A stretch of 64,000 nucleotides of DNA from the NCBI GenBank assembly GCA_951406725.2, contig OX597827.1, positions 22,382,001-22,446,000 of the forward strand, in the 5' to 3' direction. A program made the position numbers and the translations under genes. This stretch comes from Octopus vulgaris (taxonomy: Eukaryota). Below are positions 25,201 to 50,105 of this stretch, piece by piece (within the stretch, counting starts at the first letter, position 1; each line of letters begins with the position of its first letter). A model generated the notes under the pieces. The model was not told the origin of the DNA. It did no database searches and was given only the letters and a program-made list of their open reading frames with translations.

Positions 25201-25719
25201 TCGAACAAATTTGTTACACGTTCCTCCGGAGAAGTTTGTAACCTTCCTAGAATATGGAGATATAGTGGAGCACACGCACACACACACACACACACTGATA
25301 TCTTTGACTCCTCCACTAAATGCACACCCAACTGATTCTTGGAGAGTCGATCACAAAAAGCTCCATTTTTTCTCGGGTCCCCGGAAATCGCTGTCTTCTT
25401 TGCCTCTTCTACCCTTACTCTATCGGCCCCTATCCTTTCTTCACATCCCTGGAATTTCCCCCTCCTCTCTGTTCCTGTCTTCCCTGTCGTTGTTGACTCA
25501 GCAAATTTCAAGATGAACGTTAACGACATCAAGCTCACCAGTCTATGGGAGCGTTCGAAGGCTATAGGCACGACCCCTCATTCCAGACCCAGCAATTAAA
25601 AAACAAAACAGAAAGGAAAAAGTTGGCAAGATTGAGGATAAGAAAAAAGACAGGAAATTATTTTGTTTTTATGTTTATTGTATGACATTTTAATATCTCC
25701 CCACCTCAGTAAAAAAATA

Positions 25720-26070
25720 TATGTGGCACATGTGTGTGTGTGAGTAAAGCTGGACTCAAGAGCCATCTTCGTAGTCATAAAGCGAGACAGATGAGTGACA
25801 ACCTGGCCACTGGTGGTGGTGTAACACACCATACTAATCATATCTGTCGGGCATGTGGAAGAGAGTGTAATTCGGGAGGAGGACTTAAACGACATGCAAA
25901 GGTACATGAAGCACAGTTACAACTACAGCCAGCTATTACCGGTAAAGGTTTTAGTTGCCAATTCTGTACAAGACATTTTAGATCTTTGGCTGAGCTAAAA
26001 AGTCACATTCGGTCACAGCACTAGTAACAGTTAAGCTTCGTGCAATGGCCATACTCGATAACGAGGGGGC
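25720..26070 (+). mobile_element. RTE-like LINE 3' end encoding C2H2 zinc fingers
   Basis: ORF 25734..26024: CRACGREC..GLKRHAKVH and CQFCTRHFRSLAELKSHIRSQH; tail shared with 8517-8720 and 55915-55962. Confidence 0.65.
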
Positions 26071-41610: not shown

Positions 41611-41662
<52 letters not shown>

Positions 41663-41728
41663 GGTCCCGGGTTGATTCGGGGTTAACCACAGTAAATAAG
41701 GTACTCAATACATAGCAGAGTAAAATTA

Positions 41729-41851
41729 ATTTATTATATAGAAGGAGCTTCTACAGGACTAGAACTGTTTCATTCAAGAGAAATCTTCAGGAAGCCTGAA
41801 GATTTCTCTTGAATGAAACAGTTCTAGTCCTGTAGAAGCTCCTTCTATATA

Positions 41852-41857
<6 letters not shown>
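41729..41857. repeat. Perfect palindrome, 63-bp arms, 3-nt loop
   Basis: 41729-41791 is the exact reverse complement of 41795-41857. Confidence 0.95.
41747..41795 (-). ncRNA. Type I hammerhead ribozyme
   Basis: GCTTC-CTGAAGA-TTTC TCTT GAAT-GAAA-CAG TTCTAGTC CTG-TA-GAAGC; canonical core, GUA site. Confidence 0.75.
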
Positions 41858-43756: not shown

Positions 43757-43867
<111 letters not shown>

Positions 43868-44023
43868 ATTTCAGCAAAATAATTAAGATTCAAATGAATT
43901 CAAATGAATTCAAATGAATATGGTACTTAACTTAGATGCACCAGAATTCTTTATGGTATTAACCATAAAATAATGTTGGGTGATTATAACCAAGGAAAAA
44001 AAGCAACAAGAATGGATTAGTAG

Positions 44024-44110
44024 TTTAGTACAATTGTTTCGTACTAAGAACATTTTATTTAAAGCTACAAATATTGCAGCAAATGCAATGTCCAGTATTC
44101 ATCAGCTAAA
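44024..44110 (-). ncRNA. Type I hammerhead ribozyme (left arm)
   Basis: TTTAG-CTGATGA-A-TACT...AGTA-C-GAAA-CAATTG-TA-CTAAA; canonical core, palindromic stem III. Confidence 0.8.
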
Positions 44111-44190
44111 TCATATATATGTTTTCCAAACATCCTAGATTCTCTATATACACATAGATTCTCTAGGATGTCTGGAAAACATATATCTGA

Positions 44191-44278
44191 TTTAGCTGAT
44201 GAATACTGGACATTGCATTTGCTGCAATATTTGTAGCTTTAAATAAAATGTTCTTAGTACGAAACAATGTGTACTAAA
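44191..44278 (+). ncRNA. Type I hammerhead ribozyme (right arm)
   Basis: TTTAG-CTGATGA-A-TACT...AGTA-C-GAAA-CAATGTG-TA-CTAAA (1-nt insertion in stem III). Confidence 0.78.
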
Positions 44279-44311
44279 CTACTAATCCATTCTTGTTGCT
44301 TTTTTCCTTGG

Positions 44312-44362
<51 letters not shown>

Positions 44363-46936: not shown

Positions 46937-47224
46937 ATACAATTGCAGCGTGGAAGGTGTTTATAAGCCATTTAAGAAACACACAAAAGCCGTTCGATTC
47001 ACTTCAACATTTAAGTTTAATTTGTCAAAATATTTTCGTCGCTAAAATCCGCGACCTGTTCACTGACAAAGTCCGTGCTGCAGCACGATCTTTGTCAGTG
47101 AACAGGTCGCGGATTTTAGCGACGAAAATATTTTGACAAATTAAACTTAAATGTTGAAGTGAATCGAACGGCTTTTGTGTGTTTCTTAAATGGCTTATAA
47201 ACACCTTCCACGCTGCAATTGTAT
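46937..47224. repeat. Loopless palindrome, 144-bp arms, 2 mismatches; each arm has a hammerhead-like fold (47021-47070 minus, 47091-47140 plus)
   Basis: Symmetry centre 47080/47081 (GCTG|CAGC); TTTGTCA-GTGAACA-G-GTCGC..GCGAC-GAAA-ATAT-TT-TGACAAA. Confidence 0.93.
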
Positions 47225-47278
47225 TCGTTTCAGCACACGATCTCAGATCAAATTACTTGCTATGCGAGTACATCTCCG

Positions 47279-47331
<53 letters not shown>

Positions 47332-50070: not shown

Positions 50071-50105
50071 ATTCAACGTTTCGAGCGGAGCTCTTCGTCA
50101 GAAAC
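50071..50105 (-). ncRNA. Minimal hammerhead, family L, canonical CTGACGA
   Basis: GTTT-CTGACGA-A-GAGC TCC GCTC-GAAA-CG-TT-GAAT. Confidence 0.65.

Follow-up and report, generated by a model that had tools for sequence, protein, structure and literature searches.

What kind of genetic object is a 332-bp palindrome that carries a hammerhead ribozyme motif on each strand? Such a structure lies at positions 43985–44316 of the window (the whole stretch of 64,000 nucleotides of Octopus vulgaris DNA analyzed here), where a re-reading of the sequence and an alignment of the arms confirmed both the palindrome and its two motifs. The first-pass annotation of this DNA had pointed to a likeness with ambisense-ribozyme RNAs and had named a template switch by a Penelope-like element (PLE) as the simpler origin. 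We consider that the locus is very probably a 5'-truncated, double-ended PLE insertion, likely generated by priming at two sites on one RNA and likely closed by end-joining. The object itself is ordinary, the stump of a transposon of published architecture. Its family numbers hundreds of copies, ends sharply at two fixed sites and bears an exceptionally long tail, which makes the geometry of the arms countable, and how PLEs acquire their inverted copies and tails is still presented as an open mechanistic question (Craig et al. 2021, PMC8557442, section 15).

The window locus and its hammerhead motifs

The complete insertion spans 43864–44316 and is asymmetric, with a tail of about 120 nt on the left arm, which the first-pass annotation overlooked in starting the element at 43985, and none on the right. 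A (TA)n microsatellite (43758–43863), the insertion target, is followed on the minus strand by the tail (43864–43984), which leads to the long 3' end of the element (L end), and by the left arm of 155 nt (43985–44139), a 5'-truncated pLTR that we assign below by motif to a Hydra-clade PLE. A junction filler unique in the genome (44140–44157) separates it from the right arm of 159 nt (44158–44316), likewise a 5'-truncated pLTR, which lies on the plus strand and terminates without a tail at the short 3' end (S end). Another (TA)n microsatellite follows (44317–44357); both ends of the insertion abut (TA)n, and no TSD is discernible in these flanks. The junction contains an 11-nt direct repeat (44136–44146 and 44155–44165) enclosing 8 extra nucleotides, resembling a templated end-joining insertion. 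The right arm begins 4 nt further 5' than the left, and those four bases match the family. The longest perfect complementary run of the palindrome reaches 81 nt, where 100 shuffled sequences give at most 10, and the arms differ at four places (CAATTG/CAATGTG, TCAT/TCAG, CCAAAC/CCAGAC and an A7/A6 run). One variant is common to both arms and absent from all other fetched loci.

A near-perfect palindrome between two microsatellites might be suspected to be an assembly or library fold-back artifact, and none of the contigs of family copies from four sequencing runs crosses the window junction, a result that is uninformative about the locus. Against an artifact stand the arm differences, three of which the first-pass annotation had already invoked in the same sense and to which the A7/A6 run is added here, together with the one-sided tail, the unlike flanks and the structured junction filler. 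Moreover, dozens of loci, and two further families close by, repeat the design of one tailed and one tailless arm. We give the artifact practically no credence.

The hammerhead core (CUGANGA / GAAA / UH) is present in both arms, with CTGATGA starting at 44196 (+) and 44105 (−), so that, as first annotated, each arm holds one motif and the two face outward. These type I motifs occupy 44024–44110 on the minus strand and 44191–44278 on the plus strand, and their predicted cuts, after 44029 and after 44273, agree with those given earlier. The term "canonical" applied to them at first suits the cores and not the rest: position 10.1–11.1 is A.C in both window arms and in their subfamily (A-U, G.U or G-C elsewhere), and stem II is interrupted by an insertion of about 50 nt. 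The self-complementary stem III is intact in the minus-strand motif of the left arm and disrupted in the plus-strand copy by a private 1-nt insertion. Rfam gave no match to a hammerhead family at gathering score over the entire window, nor at E<=10 over 43850–44340, where only sub-threshold hairpin-type matches, mostly to miRNA models, appeared; the long stem II insertion is possibly the cause.

In the family at large, 82 of 101 distinct full arms keep an intact core, and whole base pairs in stems I and II are exchanged between subfamilies. Across 41 related sequences, 96.3% of cells are paired and four pairs are changed on both sides (two in stem I and two in stem II). Covariation in this set amounts to 0.176, compared with 0.119 in shuffled alignments, none of 500 shuffles being as high; the two measures based on counts of pairs or of pair types were no higher than in the shuffles (291/500 and 365/500). 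These comparisons suggest that the hammerhead fold was probably under selection in the active element.

The window copies are weaker hammerheads. Transcription in either direction would give, as already proposed in the first-pass annotation, a rod with a hammerhead in its 3' arm, and we computed a rod fold of −244 (+) and −250 (−) kcal/mol for the unit. The hammerhead of each polarity is preceded by its own antisense arm, and its core is predicted to be paired once transcribed. With the antisense arm invariably transcribed ahead of them, and a transcript that would fold into a rod of about 155 bp, the window hammerheads are predicted to be silent, buried in that rod. Forcing the hammerhead fold in the palindrome would cost about 120 kcal/mol, and in a single arm a competing hairpin over the cut site imposes a predicted penalty of 7–10 kcal/mol. 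The likeness to ambisense-ribozyme rods is, on these predictions, superficial. PLE hammerheads with a short palindromic stem III are, in the consulted part of one study, reported to be poor cleavers that depend on dimers (Cervera and de la Pena 2014, PMC4209133).

Two further tailed palindromes lie within 6 kb of the main one. A second palindromic insertion in (TA)n, at 46937–47283, has loopless 144-nt arms that are 99% complementary and a tail of about 60 nt on the right. It belongs to another family, a young one with 868 candidates and numerous copies 100% identical over 135 nt, in which the tailed and tailless design was seen at 6 of 18 other loci (L118, L121, L129, L131, L132 and L133); a motif scan of this family found no canonical hammerhead, and a search for its autonomous partner found none. 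A third (TA)n palindrome (129 nt, 98%), at 41659–41857, has a tail of about 70 nt on the left, and each of its arms begins just ahead of a hammerhead-like core (CTGAAGA...GAAAC) of yet another family. A further repeat with a compact hammerhead-like core and a short stem II occurs at 50101 (−), 57649 (+) and 62239 (−) and is probably another PLE family. Among the 124 window ORFs scanned, the sole clear host-like coding signal is an open stretch at 25713–26021 (+) with C2H2 zinc-finger matches (PF13894, E=1.2e-9); one further match fell below the cut-off.

The family and its full-length element

In the 2.8-Gb assembly (227 contigs), one arm used as query yielded 1707 candidates, 40 of which were scored, while exact patterns of the hammerhead core and of the tail matched 454 and 966 times, respectively, and their reversed controls not once. 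We examined about 250 fetched loci, mainly from contigs 1–3, and excluded from the counts loci L034–L045, where the query is mostly a flanking repeat. The copies have two fixed 3' end sites, each ending in TTATA, namely the short site and one 122–125 nt beyond it; the tail measures 122–125 nt in three reference copies, and the printed 3' flanks of family copies are mostly (TA)n.

Going 5' in long copies, about 1.3 kb of non-coding sequence leads to a GIY-YIG endonuclease (EN) and a reverse transcriptase (RT). From the other side, 27 of 30 loci anchored on the endonuclease contain a stretch matching the arm or the tail, mostly about 1.3 kb downstream of the endonuclease. One copy, L083, is complete and consists of a truncated pLTR with tail, the ORF region, and a pLTR with tail. 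Its ORF is flanked by a 377-bp direct repeat (97% identical), that is, by pLTRs arranged as a partial tandem, with tail sequence standing immediately 5' of the ORF region, and the element spans about 4.2 kb between its two tail ends. The linked long copies contain the motifs YRDD (RT) and VIY...YLG (endonuclease), with the EN C-terminal to the RT. Every long copy seen has frameshifts or stops. Pfam matches were weak and below cut-off for both domains (GIY-YIG, E=0.031; RVT_1, E=0.0016), the protein of copy L190 had no Pfam support, and two protein searches found no homologues of the endonuclease region, which is weak evidence. Judged from its sequence context, the arm represents the pLTR, at the 3' end, of a Penelope-like element of about 4.2 kb with an RT followed C-terminally by a GIY-YIG domain, so that the PLE origin proposed in the first-pass annotation is supported.

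Protein motifs, used in place of an RT tree, assign this element to the Hydra clade. RWK is found in L083 and L190, and DKT (in place of DKG) in L083, L190 and L188, both motifs being missing from the other 7 copies scanned, which are 5'-truncated; a CxCX5C linker of the CNCRIKSKC type occurs in 7 of 10 long copies, and CxxC and CxH in most. The endonuclease lacks CCHH, with a single Cys between VIY and YLG. The Neptune, Nematis and Poseidon clades were ruled out because their CCHH, with its two Cys lying between GIY and YIG, is missing here, and Naiad was ruled out by its N-terminal endonuclease, the EN following the RT here.

RWK, DKT and CxCX5C, the lack of CCHH, the CxxC/CxH flanking the catalytic E and N residues, insertion into (TA)n and the hammerhead in the pLTR are all shared with the EN+ PLEs of the Hydra clade, for example Penelope-13_HM and Hydra-1_Obim, as presented in the consulted parts of Craig et al. 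(PMC8557442). By contrast with these parts of the same source, where Hydra-clade elements are described as generally shorter than 3 kb, a trait that characterizes the clade without defining it, the octopus element reaches about 4.2 kb with its Asn-rich linker and its 3' region of about 1.3 kb; the loop of stem II has about 50 nt here, as compared with a few in the Hydra hammerheads listed there, the sequence of the motif is unlike that given for Hydra-1_Obim, and the tail has about 120 nt instead of the 30–40 bp described for PLEs. As for the PLE hammerheads covered by the consulted part of Cervera and de la Pena (PMC4209133), the octopus motifs share the type I topology, a 5-bp stem I and a short palindromic stem III, which is thought there to need a dimer, but they carry a long structured insertion in stem II and, in the window subfamily, A.C in place of the conserved G10.1–C11.1. 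Opposite-strand arrangements have precedents in both sources: dual hammerheads on opposite strands about 100–700 bp apart in Schistosoma (PMC4209133), and a 5'-truncated inverted copy of Penelope-13_HM with the same hammerhead on both strands (PMC8557442, supplement). Set apart from the published families as far as the consulted parts of these papers cover them, the family is new, and its architecture is already known.

Three additional observations concern the long copies. The linker that separates RT from EN includes about 300 Asn-rich amino acids (L076–L085), to be compared with the N-rich inserts of rotifer Penelopes. In both full-length copies, L083 (reverse strand, ~4530) and L190 (~990), the first ATG past the tail does not share the frame of the RT ORF, and the pyrimidine-rich sequence preceding it closes with AG, as a 3' splice site would; either a 5' intron or a subfamily-wide defect may account for it. 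On the reverse strand of L078 (2578–3507), a piece of a different PLE family, which has GIY-YIG and a comparable CxCX5C linker, stands beside the family copy.

Geometry of the double-ended insertions

Does the palindrome move as a unit? A self-propagating ambisense-ribozyme element, either a viroid-like rod or a retrozyme, would be in keeping with one hammerhead per polarity, with the rod fold and with stems that covary across subfamilies. Yet the first 100 of the 454 core matches contain 18 outward-facing adjacent pairs, 2 direct ones and 0 inward ones, and the 18 outward pairs have 18 different spacings (71–4098 nt), while the 40-nt center of the window palindrome occurs a single time in the genome with up to 2 mismatches allowed. 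The genome-wide check of turn points that the first-pass annotation had suggested has thereby been run: the turn point varies between insertions, and the palindrome is not a self-propagating unit. Furthermore, a single hammerhead per polarity, predicted to be buried in the rod, would release no monomer, and the covariation is inherited from the autonomous element. The consulted part of the viroid-like RNA literature (PMC10162972) describes circular replicons with paired ribozymes; one ribozyme per polarity and a rod-like fold are shared with the ambisense ones among them, whereas here we see one ribozyme duplicated in inverted orientation on a chromosome, and its junction has no independent copies. 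On these grounds, we hold such an element to be barely conceivable. Two candidates for remobilized palindromes, the identical-junction pairs L208/L209 and L247/L251, share their flanks and are segmental duplicates; L223/L269 have one arm limit in common and nothing more of the junction. Non-LTR retrozymes, described in the part seen of a preprint as head-to-tail tandems of short hammerhead units (bioRxiv 10.64898/2026.07.22.740005), were ruled out as well, the 2 direct pairs in the first 100 matches corresponding to one local duplication and one full-length element.

Those first 100 core matches collapse to 80 loci, which a hand tally classified as 52 double-ended (53 insertions), 25 single-ended and 3 unclear. 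All 53 double-ended insertions combine one tailed and one tailless arm, a few of the short arms having just 14–19 nt or an eroded end. Single-ended loci terminate at the short site in 16 cases and at the long one in 9. In a second sample of 95 tail-anchored ends, which overlaps partially with the core-anchored one and from which 5 duplicates were dropped, an inverted arm runs to the short site in 56, no inverted arm is found in 30, and 9 have inverted arms that end elsewhere or out of view; tail-with-tail pairs number 0. Hand-pooling after removal of duplicates gave 95 double-ended insertions (6 with the inverted 3' end hidden or interrupted), for which arm limits were hand-curated from BLAST ends with an accuracy of a few nucleotides. 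At least 15 further near-symmetric palindromes with two whole hammerheads are present in the sample. Side by side within one (TA)n tract, L168 (G000:C3:7357893-7361823) holds two adjoining near-symmetric palindromic insertions of the family.

The template switch of the first-pass annotation amounts to a fold-back, in which a single cDNA, or an antisense template, turns on itself and self-primes at a small palindrome. Self-priming has been proposed for rotifer Penelopes, according to the consulted part of PMC3846280, some junctions here are centered on short self-complementary words (L208), and both arms always belong to one subfamily (40 loci). The symmetry of the turn points is also what a fold-back would favor: in the pooled set, 27 of 95 turn points are symmetric to within 20 nt, where 7.2 are expected (at most 21 in 20,000 permutations, p=5e-5), and 11 agree to within 2 nt, where 1.1 are expected. 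However, a fold-back copy must nest within the tailed arm, and this rule fails in 38 of the 95 insertions, in which the tailless arm extends more than 20 nt further 5' (the tailed arm does so in 30), as well as by 4 family-matching nucleotides in the window itself. We infer from this failure that two priming events are needed. In addition, tailless single ends exist alone, which makes the short site a priming site in its own right. Fold-back from one cDNA appears, in consequence, an unlikely origin for these insertions, and this part of the earlier interpretation finds no support as a general route. The 56 turn points comprise 30 with 1–10 shared letters, 21 with inserted letters, 3 blunt ones and 2 with a larger overlap.

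If two priming events took place, did they use one RNA or two? Two RNAs or RNPs might each prime one end of the break, the tailed/tailless pairing being then set by an asymmetry of the protein complex. The comparison of arm pairs at 40 loci, in which the "other" copies may include repeat fetches of one locus, speaks in part for this: at only 11 loci is the partner arm the nearest of all copies, which falls short of proof for a single RNA template, and the two arms of L141 differ at 10 positions. It is an exception, all 39 remaining pairs differing at 5 positions or fewer, and, against two templates, none of the 40 pairs reaches the divergence of the median other copy (10–21 positions). Starts of tailed arms show no clear pile-up at the short site (10, compared with 9 and 8 in the neighboring bins; 8 versus 3 and 3 in sample A, 2 versus 6 and 5 in sample B). 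Such a pile-up is predicted by strict twin priming of the L1 type, and its lack would be compatible with separate templates. Nevertheless, two templates alone leave unexplained the correlated truncation points and the private variant of the window arms, and we regard them as a possible but rather doubtful source. The strict one-of-each pairing and the correlated stop points make engagement of one RNA the simplest reading; weighed against two templates and fold-back, the idea that both target ends engage one RNA at its two TTATA sites seems to us about evenly poised. Symmetric turn points could alternatively come from fold-back, later deletion or conversion. Finally, 5 arm starts fall within 3 nt of the hammerhead cut site, where 4.2 are expected; truncation is not enriched there, and there is therefore no sign of template cleavage.

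Proposed two-ended priming and its implications

Engagement of one RNA by both target ends would proceed as follows. The GIY-YIG endonuclease would cut both strands of a (TA)n target, and each 3' target end would pair with one of the two TTATA sites, which lie about 120 nt apart on the element RNA. Reverse transcription primed downstream would displace the upstream cDNA, both reverse transcriptions would stop early, frequently near one point, and the head-to-head cDNAs would be closed by microhomology or templated end-joining. The hammerheads would be passengers of the pLTR. We give somewhat less than an even chance to the view that the family preserves, from events in vivo, the traces of target-primed reverse transcription begun at both ends by a dimeric PLE protein on the same RNA with strand displacement.

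Two-site priming fits the behavior of the Poseidon element PAc in vitro, where, according to the consulted part of Frangieh et al. (2024, PMC11167929), both strands are cut and extended and reverse transcription begins at two internal sites that delimit a tail. An AT-rich target is likewise common to both systems. The PAc start sites lie within the ORF, are the same on both strands and show no homology to the target, whereas here both end in TTATA, match (TA)n and are paired one of each. A 5'-truncated inverted copy and a tail at one end only are presented as typical PLE features in PMC8557442, and published inverted insertions are, like ours, head-to-head with one tail, microhomology junctions and, between RT and EN, an Asn-rich insert (PMC8557442; PMC3846280; both consulted in part). 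What is added here is the pairing rule, the non-nesting and the symmetry excess, counted on about 95 insertions. A search of titles and the beginnings of abstracts, in which the subscription literature was thinly covered, found no earlier publication of a two-primer account of PLE insertion.

The shape of the palindrome likely records how these elements insert. The counts favor two priming events over fold-back and yield concrete predictions for the existing in vitro assay. If two-ended priming is correct, a single process would account for the inverted 5' copy, for the restriction of the tail to one side and for the surplus of near-perfect palindromes, and PLE inversions would be attributed to it instead of to self-priming. 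Screens for paired ribozymes on opposite strands in animal data should expect false positives of this PLE class. Were the window locus transcribed, it would likely supply dsRNA to small-RNA or editing pathways, and no cleaved replicon; inverted Penelope copies that produce siRNAs have been described (PMC3681739, consulted in part). Such insertions scatter many long perfect hairpins across the genome, which would become dsRNA substrates wherever they are transcribed.
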